The notes beneath the pieces were generated by a model. That model was not told the origin of the DNA. It saw only the letters and a list, made by a program, of their open reading frames with translations, and made no database searches. A stretch of DNA of 24,411 bases from a virus (lineage: Duplodnaviria; Caudoviricetes). This document shows positions 4,463 through 9,474 of the stretch, one piece after another; positions within the stretch are counted from its first letter, which is position 1, and every line of letters begins with the position of its first letter. The translations under genes were made by a program, and so were the position numbers. Location: positions 1 to 24,411 of IMG/VR virus record IMGVR_UViG_3300032292_001230. One strand, written 5' to 3'.

Positions 4463-5689
4463 TTATTTTTTAACTCCGTATTTACGTTCGTAATTTTTTA
4501 CTGTTTCTGCAACAGCATCAGCTACCGCTTTATCGATAGCATCAGATGCGGGGCGATCTGGAACTGCCTGATTAATCAAGGGAGTAGCGCCATAAACTGA
4601 AGGGGCAAGACGCGGATCAGGCGTGATATTTTCATTCACATAGTTGAGAAAATCTTCAAGAGCGCCATTAGCGATCGCCGCTTCATTCCTTTCAAAAGCG
4701 TCATCGCCCTCAAAAGTAGCTTTATACTTAGCCGCGCTAAGTTTGCCAAGCCCGTTAAGTTCACTTGCGCGATCTTTTAATGCCGAAAATTTGCGGATAT
4801 TTGCGGTCGCTTTATCTTGAGCGTCTTTAATAAGTTGCTGCATTTCAGCAGCATTATAGGTTTTAGACCCTTCAGACATAGATTTCTCCATTATTGTAAT
4901 TGGTACAGTTTCAAGCTCTTCATCAGGCTTAGGGGCATAAATACCCATAAGGTAATCAGAAAAAGCCGTGACGGTTGATTTAATGGACTTATAACGGCTC
5001 TTTGGGAGTTCGTCATCAGTCGCATCAATGATATTGTCCATAGCCCTAGAGAATGCGTAATAACCGCGCTCTCTAGCGTTCATAGACTTCATGTCATCTT
5101 CTGTCCATTCCTTTTGAGCGCGTCTCATTTGCGACTCAAAAGAGAATGCATATTTTTTGATATCCACATCAGGTTCCCCCGAATATATATGTGCTTCTTT
5201 TACCGCACCCCAAGGCACAGCAGATACTTCAAAAATTGTTCCTGTATCTTTTTGCAGAATTATCCCTATGGATAATTCTTTTAATAATTTTGAATGATAT
5301 TTTTCGATCGCTTTTTCATCGCGAATTTCGATACCATCATTAAAAATTGCATATTTGCCAATTGAGTCGCGATCGCTGCGATCGCTATTCTCTGGTAAAT
5401 CCGTTTCAACAATTTCACGCGCCGTAAATTTGCCAGTGACCGAGCCAATACGAGTTTTTTGGCTGTACTCATGATCGGTAAATAATTTTATTTCTTGCGT
5501 GAGGGCATATTCGTTTGAAGTTGCCACAATGCTATCGATTAATTCGCGAGTATAGGTTGTTTTTTGCCCTTCACTGTCAGTTACATCACCTTCAACCAAT
5601 AACAAAGCAGGGCGCGTCAATACACCGCTTTTTGTGAGCGCTGTATTTGCTTCGCGGTAGTAACGGTGGGTTTTAGTTTTTGTCGCCAT
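4463..5689 (-). CDS. Prohead maturation protease fused to a scaffold region
   Basis: FTDHE (His), ELSIGI (Ser) and FEVSAVPWGAV fit herpes/HK97/Mu-type prohead proteases. Charged helical C-terminal half. Confidence 0.75.
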   Translation of the reverse strand: MATKTKTHRYYREANTALTKSGVLTRPALLLVEGDVTDSEGQKTTYTRELIDSIVATSNEYALTQEIKLFTDHEYSQKTRIGSVTGKFTAREIVETDLPENSDRSDRDSIGKYAIFNDGIEIRDEKAIEKYHSKLLKELSIGIILQKDTGTIFEVSAVPWGAVKEAHIYSGEPDVDIKKYAFSFESQMRRAQKEWTEDDMKSMNARERGYYAFSRAMDNIIDATDDELPKSRYKSIKSTVTAFSDYLMGIYAPKPDEELETVPITIMEKSMSEGSKTYNAAEMQQLIKDAQDKATANIRKFSALKDRASELNGLGKLSAAKYKATFEGDDAFERNEAAIANGALEDFLNYVNENITPDPRLAPSVYGATPLINQAVPDRPASDAIDKAVADAVAETVKNYERKYGVKK

Positions 5690-5745
5690 TACGTTAATTT
5701 CTTTACTAAGGCTAGAAAATAAAGCAAGCCTGCATTTTTGGCAAC

Positions 5746-5808
5746 AAAAAGCCCCTGATTAAATTTAATCAGGGTAGTGAGAGCCTAATTAGGTCGGGGC
5801 GCTTTTTT
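5746..5808. repeat. Nested palindromes; possible terminator or operator
   Basis: Perfect 22-bp palindrome CCCTGATTAAATTTAATCAGGG (5753-5774) and 10-bp palindrome CCTAATTAGG (5784-5793), with outer arms AAAAAGCCCC / GGGGCGCTTTTT. Confidence 0.6.
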
Positions 5809-5812
5809 ATTG

Positions 5813-6134
5813 GCTGACCATAGGTAGGCACAAATAAGGCAAGTGCTGACCATAGCCACAACCTATATATATCAACGCTTTTCAGCCATCGCGCCTAGCT
5901 GTCTAGGCTAAAAAGCCGTTTTAAATCCTATACAAAAGCAATACACATAAAATCACTAATAAAAATATGTGCATATATATTACCTGTATGTATGTGTAAT
6001 GTAGGTATTAGATAGACAATATGGCTGTAACCCTTATGCAGTACTGTGGACAGATGTGGTCAGGGGTATGGACAGCAGATTTTACTGAAATAGGCGCAAA
6101 ACCTTACAGCGTATACATCTTAGCGATGGTCAAC
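5813..6134. repeat. Oppositely oriented 9-11-mer repeats flanking an AT-rich core (origin-like)
   Basis: GCTGACCATAG at 5813 and 5845. Reverse-orientation variants TGTGGACAG at 6045, TGTGGTCAG at 6055, TATGGACAGC at 6067 and GATGGTCAAC at 6125. Confidence 0.5.
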
Positions 6135-6174
6135 ACCTTGGCTATCACTAGCCAAAACTGTTTTTGAAAACCTA

Positions 6175-6203
6175 TTGACATTTGTTGTGTTAGGGGATAA
6201 TAT
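6175..6203 (+). promoter_or_regulatory. Sigma70-type promoter TTGACA-N17-TAATAT; probably gives a leaderless mRNA
   Basis: TTGACA at 6175-6180, TAATAT at 6198-6203, ATG at 6211. Confidence 0.75.
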
Positions 6204-6210
6204 AAAAACT

Positions 6211-6582
6211 ATGGATATTGAACTAACCGAGCAGCAAGAAAACGAGTACACCCGCCGTACTGCATTAGTCTATTTTCAGCAGTATGTTGATGGCTCCATG
6301 ATTGGATTTACGGGCGACGAAGATAATTTGCCAAGCGATCGCGAGATAAACAAGCGACTCAAAGCGTACGCCCAAACTTTGACACCTAATCGATTAACTG
6401 GATTCGATAGCGACGGGTGGACTATGAATTTTAAAGAAGTTGTTGAAGTTGAATTTGATTATTACCCACACTTCCCAATGTGGGCGCAATCGGATCTAGA
6501 CGGCGTAAAACCTTACTACCTTCCCAACGGATGCAACGGTGACGGCGCTAACGTAAGCAGCAAAAAACTCAAGAAGGATTAA
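6211..6582 (+). CDS. Hypothetical acidic protein (start revised to ATG 6211)
   Basis: The ORF-track start at 6175 is the TTG of the -35 box. MDIELTEQQ begins at the predicted transcription start. Confidence 0.7.
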   Translation: MDIELTEQQENEYTRRTALVYFQQYVDGSMIGFTGDEDNLPSDREINKRLKAYAQTLTPNRLTGFDSDGWTMNFKEVVEVEFDYYPHFPMWAQSDLDGVKPYYLPNGCNGDGANVSSKKLKKD

Positions 6583-6603
6583 CTCTCGCAAACTAAAACT
6601 GAT

Positions 6604-6885
6604 ATGCCAAAGCCAAACCCTCTAAATCCGATCTGCACTCAATGTGGCAAACACACCACATTTAACTGCACGCTACCATCAGGTGCGAAGCAGTACCGAT
6701 GCCGCCGCCATACCCCTAATTACACCTGTACCGATAGCGATCGCCCAGAGGGTGGGCAATTACTGGGCGATCGCAAGCTCACACAAAAAGAGCTTACTGA
6801 AAGGTGGAAGTTAAACGATCCTGAAGGGTATCGCGCCGCCCAAAAACGCAAACAACAAAAGCGAAAAAAGCTAAAAAATAAATAA
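6604..6885 (+). CDS. Zn-ribbon protein (InsA-N-like CxxC...CxxH) with a basic C-terminal helix; putative DNA-binding regulator
   Basis: CTQC...SGAKQYRCRRH and a K/R-rich tail. Confidence 0.65.
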   Translation: MPKPNPLNPICTQCGKHTTFNCTLPSGAKQYRCRRHTPNYTCTDSDRPEGGQLLGDRKLTQKELTERWKLNDPEGYRAAQKRKQQKRKKLKNK

Positions 6886-7049
6886 TTTAAAATTATATTA
6901 GTGATATTAAAATAATTTGCCGCCCGAAACCCTTGCACCGTATACGTTCTTATAAATATCAGCAAAATAATTTAAAATTATATTTACGATGTTTTACTAA
7001 AATACGCTTTAAAAGCTATACAGCGTATACGTTTAAGCGATTTTTGCTA
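6880..7049. repeat. Degenerate 85-bp tandem duplication upstream of the ncRNA promoter
   Basis: AAATAATTTAAAATTATATT at 6880 and 6965, and CGTATACGTT at 6939 and 7024; both pairs are offset by 85. Confidence 0.75.
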
Positions 7050-7083
7050 AGGGGTTGACATACGCTGTATAGGATGCTATTAT
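7016..7083 (+). promoter_or_regulatory. Strong sigma70 promoter TTGACA-N17-TATTAT (extended -10 TG) with a 13-bp inverted-repeat operator
   Basis: TTGACA at 7055-7060, TG at 7075-7076, TATTAT at 7078-7083. CTATACAGCGTAT (7016-7028) and its reverse complement ATACGCTGTATAG (7060-7072). Confidence 0.85.
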
Positions 7084-7089
7084 TTAGAA

Positions 7090-7357
7090 AGTTAAGAAAT
7101 TAACTGGTGCGAAACCCTAAAACAAAGCGAGGATGACGCTATACAAACCCTGTAGACCCCAGTAAAATCGGTGAGAAACCCTTATACAAACCGAGGATGA
7201 CGGTATATAAACCTCGAATGCGAGAAACCCTGAGAAACAGGATAAACAAAGCGAGGATGACGCTATACAAACCCTGTAGACCCCAGTAAAATCGGTGAGA
7301 AACCCTTATACAAACCGAGGATGACGGTATATAAACCTCGCTAACCGAGAACGGTTA
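7090..7357 (+). ncRNA. Putative ~270-nt repeat-array ncRNA built from tandem small hairpins
   Basis: No ORF in the track. Begins at the predicted TSS with hairpin AGUUAA-GAAA-UUAACU. Four A(G/C)CG-AGGAUGA-CG(C/G)U hairpins at 7126, 7190, 7250 and 7314 show a compensatory G-C/C-G swap. Ends in UAACCG-AGAA-CGGUUA at the ribozyme cut site. Confidence 0.7.
7120..7340 (+). repeat. Exact 97-bp direct repeat x2 (7120-7216 and 7244-7340), each holding two related ~27-bp subunits
   Basis: Read directly; period 124 bp. Subunit consensus CAAA(G/C)CGAGGATGACG(C/G)TATA(C/T)AAACC. Confidence 0.95.
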
Positions 7358-7411
7358 GCCCCTTAGACAGTAACCTCCACGCGGTTAGGGGTGGGTAACG
7401 CTAATACTGTT
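7358..7411 (+). ncRNA. Minimal HDV-like self-cleaving ribozyme (P4 nearly absent)
   Basis: P1 GCCCCU(U) 7358-7364 / (U)AGGGGU 7386-7392 with G1.U wobble. P2 ACAGUA 7367-7372 / UACUGU 7405-7410. P3 ACC/GGU with L3 UCCACGC. P1.1 CC 7377-7378 / GG 7393-7394. Vestigial P4 GUAAC. J4/2 GCUAA with candidate catalytic C7401. Confidence 0.85.
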
Positions 7412-7466
7412 AGGGCAATCACTTCACCGCCCAAATGTCCACACTACAGGCACACACTACACCGCC

Positions 7467-7799
7467 ATGAAATACATCAAAGCGTCACTCGTAATCATCG
7501 CCGCCATCGCCACACTCGCAATCGTAGGCGGCGCGATCGCACTCAAAAAATGGGTAGATCGTTATGTGGCTGTATCTATGCTCACAGTCGCGCCCAAAGC
7601 TAATGCTCAGATCGTGATTAGATCGCAGCGCAAAGCGATCGCTTTAAAAGCGGTGAGCATTACGATTAAAAATGATCGTCCTGATTACGCAGGGATGACA
7701 CTCAGGCAGCTAAAAGATGCTGCTAGAGGCACTGGTATCAAAAACTGGTCGCGACTGACTAAGAGCGTGTTAATTGCGGCTCTCATTGCCACTCACTAA
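7467..7799 (+). CDS. Membrane-anchored protein with a C-terminal Rho_N-like helix-extension-helix domain
   Basis: N-terminal hydrophobic helix SLVIIAAIATLAIVGGAIAL. C-terminal YAGMTLRQLKDAARGTGIKNWSRLTKSVLIAAL fits the Rho N-terminal domain pattern. Confidence 0.75.
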   Translation: MKYIKASLVIIAAIATLAIVGGAIALKKWVDRYVAVSMLTVAPKANAQIVIRSQRKAIALKAVSITIKNDRPDYAGMTLRQLKDAARGTGIKNWSRLTKSVLIAALIATH

Positions 7800-9474
7800 C
7801 CTTACCCAACGCCGCCGCCTGTGACTTAGGATTAGGGGCATACATACTAATCGACTGCAATAGGGCATACTTCACTGCATCTGCCCTATCAGGAGATCTC
7901 CCCAATCGCTTCTTCACTTCTTTTTTAGATTCTATTGAAACCACACCGCCATCGATGGACGATCGGCGAATACTGCAAAGCTCAGCTTTTAATTTTGGAT
8001 CGGGCGGTAACATCAGCGTGGGATTGTACTGCGGATCGAGCGCTTCCATTAACTTCCACGCAAGCATCGCATTCATGTCCCTGAAGCGCAGTAAACCAGT
8101 GCGATCGGTGATTGGCTTACCGTTGCGATCGCAAGCACTAGCGCCGCCATTAATCGCCACTACACTCCATCCCATTTTTTTGCATGAATCATAGGGCGAA
8201 CTGCCAACGCCCACAACATCGATATTAATTTGGGGATTGCCAATCCTGAGATTATGGATAATATCTCGAACCGCGTCCCCATCTTCGACATATTTACCTT
8301 TAGTCAGGTGAATCGGCGCGATCCAATCATTAAAGCGAATAGCGATCGCTGTCTCGTCATCACCGCCTCTCGATGGATCCACGCCCATAGCTGACATATT
8401 GGGGCTTTGATTTTTTGTACGATAAATTGAGAGGGCATTATTAAAATCTAAGCTTTTAGTACCCATGTACGCAATCCATCTGTCTTGCGCTGCCACAATC
8501 CAAGCTGTGGGGATTACTTGGAGATCGGTGGATTCCACAATCCTAATAAAATTACCTTCTCTAAATCGCGTCCTAAGCTCAATGGGTAAAGCTTCTAAAG
8601 TTTTGTCGTACCCCTTAGCCATCAACACAGGATTATCCTCAACCTTACCGCCAATAAACGACCGTGAGCGCCCCTCTAATCGCTTTACCGTGCCATTAGG
8701 TAGCGTGTATTCATGAATCGGTCTAGGAGGCATTTCACCCCGCGCCATGTACTCTTTAACTTCACTTAATGGAGTTCGTGCAATCTCAACGTCTAAATCT
8801 TCTTCCCCGATATATTTACGAACGAACCAAACCAAGCTCCCTTGCTCAGCGCGATCGCCATCGTAATCAGGATCAATAAACGCGCCCCAATAATCTAAAA
8901 CCCATTCACCATCAACAGTCGTAGGCGGGTTGCCAGTTGCCACAATTCGGCATCGCACACTAGGATCAGGGTGACGATTCCAGATATTGATTTTCCTGAA
9001 TTGCATCTCTGAAAATTCTGTAAGTTCATCCCAGCACTTCAAATCGTGAGCTTGTCCTTGATATTTCTGCCAATCCTGTTCGTATTGCACAGAGCCAATT
9101 TGAATAGTATTTGACTCGCTTAATCGCCACAAATGGAGCGATTCGTTATAGCTGTCACGAGCATGAATTGAAACATTACGCGCAAATATTTCACGCGATC
9201 GCTCGATGATTGCTCTACACCGTGGGAACTCGCGCCGCAAAAGCAGTGAATGCTTAGCAAATGCGGCTAAGCCAAGAATTAAATCCGTTTTCCCGCTACC
9301 CGCCGCACCACCATAGAATAATTCATCCGCAGGGTGATGAAATGCAAATTCTTGTGGACTATTTGGGAATGGTTGCCAAATGACAGAATTATTAGTATTT
9401 TCGCGCTTATTCTGTCTCTTTAATTTCGCCTTGTGTTTCGGTGATTTCAGTGGGGTCGGACACTTCGTAACCAT
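7783..9474 (-). CDS. terL: Terminase large subunit
   Basis: Walker A GGAAGSGKT, Walker B LKCWDE, motif III ATGNP, RNase H-like MGVDPSRGGDD and C-terminal SPDRADA. Start codon uncertain. Confidence 0.95.
   Translation of the reverse strand: MVTKCPTPLKSPKHKAKLKRQNKRENTNNSVIWQPFPNSPQEFAFHHPADELFYGGAAGSGKTDLILGLAAFAKHSLLLRREFPRCRAIIERSREIFARNVSIHARDSYNESLHLWRLSESNTIQIGSVQYEQDWQKYQGQAHDLKCWDELTEFSEMQFRKINIWNRHPDPSVRCRIVATGNPPTTVDGEWVLDYWGAFIDPDYDGDRAEQGSLVWFVRKYIGEEDLDVEIARTPLSEVKEYMARGEMPPRPIHEYTLPNGTVKRLEGRSRSFIGGKVEDNPVLMAKGYDKTLEALPIELRTRFREGNFIRIVESTDLQVIPTAWIVAAQDRWIAYMGTKSLDFNNALSIYRTKNQSPNMSAMGVDPSRGGDDETAIAIRFNDWIAPIHLTKGKYVEDGDAVRDIIHNLRIGNPQINIDVVGVGSSPYDSCKKMGWSVVAINGGASACDRNGKPITDRTGLLRFRDMNAMLAWKLMEALDPQYNPTLMLPPDPKLKAELCSIRRSSIDGGVVSIESKKEVKKRLGRSPDRADAVKYALLQSISMYAPNPKSQAAALGKVSEWQ

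Follow-up and report, generated by a model that had tools for sequence, protein, structure and literature searches.

Sponge RNAs such as CsrB and RsmZ are built as beads-on-a-string of small hairpins with purine-rich, often GGA-bearing loops, and GGA in hairpin loops is recognised by CsrA. In the case of HDV-type self-cleavage, the reaction leaves a 2',3'-cyclic-phosphate end.

Theta ribozymes have been described from gut phages, and hundreds of matches lying away from tRNAs were left without a function in the accessible part of that report (PMC10879173). Phage PhiTE carries pseudo-ToxI, an expanded repeat array of variable copy number (PMC3475682, accessible part). For AbiF, the toxin is held by an antitoxin made of RNA (PMC12737573), and RNA anti-CRISPRs (Racrs) are phage small RNAs (PMC10651486), both according to the accessible parts of these papers. 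Our literature search, made largely outside subscription journals, found no publication describing a ribozyme-ended repeat RNA in cyanophages.

The window analysed here, by which we mean the whole stretch of DNA, is a virus record of 24,411 bases in which profile searches of the ORFs found terminase, head and tail genes. The octamer GCGATCGC, which we take to be the cyanobacterial HIP1 repeat, occurs 42 times in the window for about 0.2 expected occurrences, and the closest terminase match among bacterial genomes, 75% identical, lies on a contig of Phormidium tenue FACHB-1050. Because of this octamer excess and this terminase relative, the host of the phage is likely a cyanobacterium. Targets were accordingly searched in 71 genomes of the family of Phormidium tenue FACHB-1050 (the host family) and in 14 control genomes. 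The hairpin array sits in a plus-strand island between the minus-strand terminase gene and a minus-strand 408-aa gene, with the following features.

4463-5689, minus strand: 408-aa gene, the other border of the plus-strand island
6175-6203: second sigma70-type promoter, which opens the plus-strand island and resembles the promoter directly driving the array of locus L124
6604..6885, plus strand: zinc-finger-like 93-aa protein with a basic tail; C11, C14 and C33 invariant in five homologues
7055..7083, plus strand: sigma70-type promoter TTGACA-17-TATTAT with a TG extension; 11 of 12 consensus matches, predicted start near 7090
7090..7105, plus strand: 5' cap hairpin, stem of 6 bp and GAAA (GNRA) loop, seen in folds; predicted 5' end of the RNA
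7101..7357, plus strand: array of four units of 59-69 nt (7101-7164, 7165-7223, 7224-7288, 7289-7357)
7342..7357, plus strand: terminal hairpin of the array, found in a bulged version in L140 and L158
7358..7410, plus strand: predicted minimal HDV-like ribozyme, core of the theta type; cut predicted at 7357/7358, catalytic C equivalent at 7401
7467..7799, plus strand: ORF of 110 aa whose product has a hydrophobic N-terminus and a Rho_N domain (PF07498, E 1.1e-5), a passenger 3' of the ribozyme
7783..9474, minus strand: terminase large subunit (phrog_2, E 1.4e-26), on the strand opposite to the cassette whose slot it marks

Like CsrB and RsmZ, the array is a string of hairpins with purine-rich loops; unlike them, it is found without a CsrA in the host family, lacks GGA in some units, has no Rfam match and is followed by a predicted ribozyme. 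As far as the accessible parts of PMC3475682, PMC4627078, PMC3401426 and PMC12283969 describe them, type III antitoxins and pseudo-ToxI share with the array promoter-driven short structured repeats, A-rich linkers and variable copy number, and pseudo-ToxI likewise resides in a phage. A 10-mer following stem B in many units is part of the CptI repeat primer given there, although this match is short and perhaps due to chance. In contrast to the type III antitoxins of these accounts, the array has no conserved H-type pseudoknot, no toxin behind it and a 3' end predicted to be made by a ribozyme. By analogy with the part of PMC3475682 available, pseudo-ToxI would be the closest precedent for an array serving as a decoy. 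The array would also resemble Racrs as a phage small RNA that soaks up host proteins; however, in the accessible part of PMC10651486 Racrs are solitary mimics of CRISPR repeats, whereas the array has no CRISPR-repeat match in the 71 host-family genomes.

Promoter, neighbouring genes and transcription

The promoter at 7055..7083 ranks best of eight sites in 5600-8200, and promoters like it precede the RNA in L124, L125, L140 and L225. The cap hairpin recurs letter for letter in L225, ahead of a different payload, and in L124 with an equal stem and a GCGA (GNRA) loop. Its pattern was found in two of 17 related records, and its one match among the 71 host-family genomes lies in coding sequence. 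A perfect 13-bp inverted repeat (7016-7028 / 7060-7072) has one arm within the promoter spacer; this operator-like element may mean that the promoter is regulated, perhaps by the zinc-finger protein. Further upstream (6880-7000) lies a 36-nt AT-rich direct and inverted repeat, in a region 82% conserved in L125.

Eleven sequencing runs share a small part of the stretch; seven are recorded as RNA, and the figures given here come from four of these RNA runs. Six of their seven contigs fall inside 7122-7337, with 90-95% identity and a word depth of 2.4 to 69.6, and one contig extends into a tail like that of L124. Where the contigs differ from the window, the tip of the third loop is changed with its stem kept, and the covarying pair of hairpin A appears again. 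These contigs hint at transcription of the array; they belong to relatives, the runs were selected for this stretch, the contigs carry no strand or level, and RNA libraries can hold DNA. The terminase end had no RNA contig, an absence to which we give no weight.

The genes beside the RNA raise the question of a phage-internal partner. The zinc-finger gene adjoins the RNA at four of the six cassette loci (window, L125, L140, L225), and the ORF downstream of the RNA in the window carries the Rho_N domain. The RNA could be a scaffold or antitoxin for one of these nearby proteins, zinc-finger/basic or Rho_N, in a regulatory or toxin-antitoxin module of the phage itself. However, the zinc-finger gene is missing from the L124 slot and stands without the RNA in L123 and L128 (L158 ends at the contig edge). 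Downstream genes differ at every locus: behind the ribozyme, L140 and L158 have other genes or none, so that the Rho_N ORF is not conserved beside homologous arrays, and it had no tblastn match at E <= 1e-3 in L121-L128. None of the six cassette neighbour proteins matched PADLOC. Against the protein atlas, the zinc-finger-like ORF gave hypothetical-protein clusters and DUF7576 leads below 0.9 only. We consider such a module improbable.

Beside the terminase gene, the segment 9828-13010 carries genes for a Tet/JBP-family oxygenase, a ParB-like protein, an HNH endonuclease and a PAPS-reductase-like protein, a candidate DNA-modification module.

The hairpin array and its homologues

Each array unit consists of hairpin A (G-AGAAA-C), hairpin B (4 bp closing a 7-nt RGRAYGR loop) and a third, weaker hairpin, separated by A-rich linkers, and the array RNA is about 40% A. 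The hairpins listed by an earlier sequence-only reading were all recovered, at 7126/7250 (AGCG), 7190/7314 (ACCG), 7106/7170/7294 (GGU-G(C/A)GAA-ACC), 7213 (CUCG) and 7229 (CCUG), and its 3' boundary of 7357 was exactly right, the predicted ribozyme starting at 7358. A greedy count found 12 non-overlapping Watson-Crick mini-hairpins in 7090-7357, a number reached by none of 1000 dinucleotide shuffles (mean 3.2); over 91 tiled 268-nt windows, the array's own included, the mean was 3.3 and the maximum 8. The folding z-score was -2.55. Both the count and the z-score are inflated by internal duplication; positions 7120-7216 are identical to 7244-7340, an exact duplication of 97 nt. The alternation of AGCG and ACCG stems previously read as repeated compensation is real in that both variants are present, but it consists of two variants copied once by this duplication and not of four independent swaps.

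We then asked what the array is related to. Rfam 15 gave no match at the gathering score in the window, and the recommended Rfam check yielded a sub-threshold match to RF02682 right after the array. Searches of annotated phages and plasmids with blastn returned 2 and 4 records, all short matches with E 0.2-0.6. The three-hairpin unit of about 64 nt was also found in three other phage contigs (L124, L140, L158), which makes four distinct arrays in all, of 3-4 units each; L161 equals L124 over 274 nt. L124 has a promoter and a three-unit array followed by a palindromic terminator-like hairpin, after which no sense-strand gene comes. L158 has an array, a ribozyme and then a convergent gene. A search of viral contigs for terminase relatives gave six loci, five of them including the slot. 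A stem-blind pattern run on metagenomes gave 76 matches at 73 loci, and the five with Watson-Crick stems were all true homologues (L140, L158, L161). With a 17-base pattern, viral contigs yielded single matches at 120 or more loci; among the 80 listed, the best against the slot region were 20 nt with E 0.006. Candidate loci L129, L143, L189, L209-L212, L235, L236 and L239 were dropped after inspection or scoring as chance, coding or motif-less.

The array-unit model had no match in the 71 host-family genomes, where BLAST with the array gave four weak matches. Three of these were short and fell in what looks like coding sequence, and no match lay within a CRISPR array. That the array is not a CRISPR array, as already proposed, is borne out by units that repeat in full and by the lack of any repeat-like match in these genomes.

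The alignment comprised 13 units, 12 of them distinct. The stems are short. In hairpin B, 97.9% of cells are paired and four units show a C-G/G-C swap, and it is the only hairpin predicted by RNAalifold (-3.9 kcal/mol); this agrees with the earlier suggestion of selection on RNA structure. Hairpin A, drawn as G-AGAAA-C with a bulged base, is paired in 94.9% of cells and has two covarying pairs. The letters of the GGU/ACC hairpin initially drawn in its place are present, but that register pairs only 75% of cells. Since units arise by duplication, each stem swap may be a single event. The loop of hairpin B, described before as an invariant AGGAUGA, reads AGGAUGA in only nine of the 13 units, GGGAUGA in one and AGAACGR in three. 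We regard the array as a real and hitherto undescribed family of structured non-coding phage RNA, whose stems appear from the alignment to be under selection.

Other pairings fared less well. The proposed AGG/CCU pseudoknot, taken together with the GGU/ACC register, was matched by 68 of 500 shuffles, and versions slid by +1 or +2 covaried better. An H-type pseudoknot in each unit was not supported, its two loop-to-downstream registers (86% and 78% paired) being no better than shuffles and its slid versions equalling or beating the covariation. Compensatory changes in the third hairpin proved to be an artefact of misaligned terminal units, and this hairpin is uncertain. A different drawing of the third hairpin, in which it kisses loop B through 2 bp, had 77% of its cells paired and was unsupported.

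The units could also be read as protein-coding. Loop B contains ATG in 10 of 13 units, nine of these reading frames close after 7-13 codons, and two third-position changes are synonymous, as if the repeats were micro-ORFs making many copies of a peptide of 7-13 residues starting M-T-x-Y-K-P. However, ACG replaces ATG in three of the 13 units, most variable positions alter the residue (L/V/E, P/S, P/H/N/R), a covarying pair joins the would-be leader to codon 3, and the L225 payload has a similar loop without ATG. A coding role is therefore very unlikely.

A predicted ribozyme and an exchangeable cassette

The sub-threshold match was to Rfam family RF02682 (HDV-F-prausnitzii), at 7358-7414, with an E value of 0.027 and 24.2 bits for a gathering score of 44. 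The same family matches L125 and, twice, L140; the four copies score 21.7-28.2 bits, all under the 44-bit threshold. Parsed by hand, 7358-7410 shows P1, P2, P3 and P1.1, no P4, and a J4/2 that opens with C7401. The predicted fold is thus the nested double pseudoknot without P4 by which minimal HDV-like ribozymes are structurally defined. A descriptor of it, run on 870,080 bases from 231 sources, gave nine matches, all of them one of six ribozyme copies or their duplicates, and gave none when the catalytic C was changed to A, G or T. A ribozyme model found two of 17 related records, both among the known copies, and two false matches in the 71 genomes.

In the six copies all 102 pair cells are paired, and two P1 pairs change on both sides. 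The pairing score was reached by four of 500 shuffles, and slid controls were 29-55% paired. Conservation across the copies begins at G1 and ends with P2; the partner of G1 is C in four copies and U in two, and C7401 is invariant. P1 has 6 bp plus an invariant U-U pair. Competing folds are predicted to cover G1 and P1, and the terminal hairpin 7342..7357 can add two pairs onto G1 and C2 of the ribozyme. As P1 has only 6 bp plus U-U and the last hairpin of the array pairs onto G1 and C2, the predicted cleavage may be slow or regulated. We hold it very probable that the locus encodes a non-coding RNA ended by a ribozyme, which had been overlooked before, together with the cassette structure described below.

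The element was compared with the theta ribozymes of gut phages, as they appear in the available part of PMC10879173. Shared with them are the absence of P4, the order of elements, the P3/L3/P1.1 core, a J4/2 with the catalytic C, and a cut site (a predicted one here) exactly at the 3' end of a stable upstream RNA. The theta-ribozyme table of that paper has 1036, 117 and 162 rows with the three P3/L3 cores of the present copies. P1 has 6 bp plus U-U here and 7 bp in the six rows of that table viewed, the other elements parsing alike. The upstream RNA is a hairpin-repeat array here and a tRNA in the part of PMC10879173 available, and the host is likely a cyanobacterium here and belongs to Bacteroidota or Bacillota there. 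The exact flanks of the ribozyme are absent from the eight supplementary files of PMC10879173 searched. As regards a cut site within 5 nt of a tRNA 3' end, no tRNA was found in the window, L125 or L158, and in L140 and L225 the tRNAs are far removed from the ribozymes. The 3' element would work like a theta ribozyme, minus the tRNA association.

Copies of the predicted ribozyme end four different upstream RNAs.

Window, L140 and L158: hairpin array (payload 1)
L125, 7936-8215, minus strand: non-repetitive RNA of about 280 nt between homologous promoter and ribozyme, with a modest fold, z -1.14 (payload 2)
L140, 2189-2296, minus strand: 108-nt RNA of small hairpins between two HDV-like ribozymes (payload 3)
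L225, 588-706, plus strand: two-copy repeat of about 55 nt with the 5' hairpin of the window and a ribozyme with two compensatory P1 changes (payload 4)

The L125 payload had no Rfam match of note. The L225 units carry a 7-nt loop of AGGA type that G-C closes, the outer pairs being different, and may be distant kin of the array units of the window; however, they were not scored by the array-unit model, and shuffles fold as well as they do (z +1.05). In L124 a terminator-like hairpin takes the place of the ribozyme at the 3' end of the array, so that all four distinct arrays end in a predicted self-cleaving motif or a terminator-like hairpin. In L123, L127 and L128, three of five informative terminase relatives, the slot holds small protein genes only. 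The distribution of the cassette is patchy, the ribozyme being present in two of 17 related records. Comparison of the loci indicates that payloads and 3'-end signals have been exchanged between phages, and that promoter, payload and ribozyme form a swappable cassette for non-coding RNA. A theta-type ribozyme would thereby gain a definite task, to complete the 3' end of phage non-coding RNAs that are swapped for one another, and it can be used as a handle in searches for undescribed phage RNAs, six copies having led to four payloads.

These 3' ends bear on whether the array acts in cis. A promoter immediately precedes it and it contains an exact recent duplication of 97 nt, as might be expected of a leader, an antitermination RNA (proposed earlier), a DNA binding-site array or a selectively neutral duplication. 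However, the stems covary, each of the four arrays has its predicted self-cleaving motif or terminator-like hairpin, and two homologues, L124 and L158, have no sense-strand gene after the array. Antitermination fits poorly with an RNA followed by such ends and by no such gene. Neither a replication initiator nor a cas gene was annotated among the 33 window ORFs scanned; the first result speaks against a DNA binding-site array, and the second against the Csf-bound RNA that had been suggested. A cis-acting or neutral array is accordingly given little credence.

In the 75-kb phage of L225, repeated promoters follow one another in the region neighbouring the cassette, each in front of small ORFs, which suggests that the cassette may be expressed early. 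The L140 payload, lying between two ribozymes, would gain 5'-OH and cyclic-phosphate ends. The ORF 3' of the second ribozyme of L140 (1800-2090, minus strand) encodes a long acidic run of DF/DL dipeptides.

Possible roles of the RNA

The following course of events is proposed. The consensus promoter, active early in infection or in the lysogen, would start the transcript at the 5' GNRA hairpin, and the four three-hairpin units would form its body. The predicted minimal HDV-like ribozyme would cut at 7357/7358 and free an RNA of about 268 nt, whose 2',3'-cyclic-phosphate end would stabilise it, the cut uncoupling the array RNA from the downstream message. The purine-rich loops would bind protein, and the freed RNA would act in trans by binding many copies of an RNA-binding protein of the host, which would most likely be an anti-phage effector. 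A free, protein-binding RNA is suggested by the promoter, the capped 5' end, the repeated loops on an A-rich string and the built-in 3' end, and an arms race would suit both the patchy distribution and the exchange of payloads. We infer that the array is sponge-like or pseudo-antitoxin-like; in the tests run it could not be assigned to CsrB, type III antitoxins, AbiF antitoxins or CRISPR-derived RNAs. Of the several roles listed by the sequence-only reading, a multivalent sponge or mimic stands as the likeliest in kind. Should the array be a decoy, its partner would be an RNA-binding defence or regulatory protein of cyanobacteria.

Known partners of such RNAs were searched for in the sampled cyanobacterial genomes. 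Ten of 13 units carry GGA in loop B, and the L225 loops carry it too, as in a CsrB/RsmZ-like sponge for CsrA, another of the roles put forward. However, GGA is missing in three of the 13 units, and CsrA was found in none of the 71 host-family genomes and none of five related phage records (the control was positive in three of 14), which makes this sponge the most improbable of the explanations weighed here. For mimicry of a type III antitoxin, no toxin to act on was found: models of ToxN, CptN and TenpN each gave no match in the 71 host-family genomes, the 14 control genomes being silent too, and no toxin gene lies downstream of the array. Abi_2 genes are present in 15 of the 71 genomes. A mimic of the AbiF RNA antitoxin was not supported, as none of 17 host Abi_2 loci matched the array-unit model at E <= 5; the best BLAST matches of any payload had E 0.06-0.7. 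No mimicked host RNA was found with the array-unit model in the 71 genomes and the 17 Abi_2 loci. For this reason we rate at about even the chances that the array RNA is a multivalent decoy aimed at an RNA-binding protein of the host, which is likely to be an effector of defence.

The same RNA and ribozyme could instead titrate housekeeping RNA machinery (ribonucleases, S1/30S subunits or cyanobacterial RRM proteins), a form of host takeover that would favour phage messages. The strong promoter, a composition of about 40% A, the purine-rich, Shine-Dalgarno-like loops of several payloads and the repeated early-type promoters near the cassette of the second phage group (L225) are consistent with this. 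However, a ribozyme found in only two of 17 related records and payloads that differ suit an arms race better than a constant target, and we think titration rather unlikely.

The decoy reading can be extended to all payloads, more tentatively. Cyanophages may possess plug-and-play cassettes made of a host-type promoter, a 5' GNRA cap hairpin, an exchangeable decoy payload and a theta-type ribozyme 3' end, with at least four payload families, each of which would disable a cyanobacterial defence protein that binds RNA and has yet to be described; the ends of the L140 payload between ribozymes could be ligated to give a circle. This wider scheme is possible but speculative.

A separate observation was made at the Abi_2 genes of the host family. 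A conserved, promoter-driven hairpin RNA lies about 40-110 nt upstream of these genes in L240, L241, L243-L247 and L249, and is likely an RNA antitoxin. Two other conserved leaders precede Abi_2 genes, one in L250-L253 and one in L254-L256.
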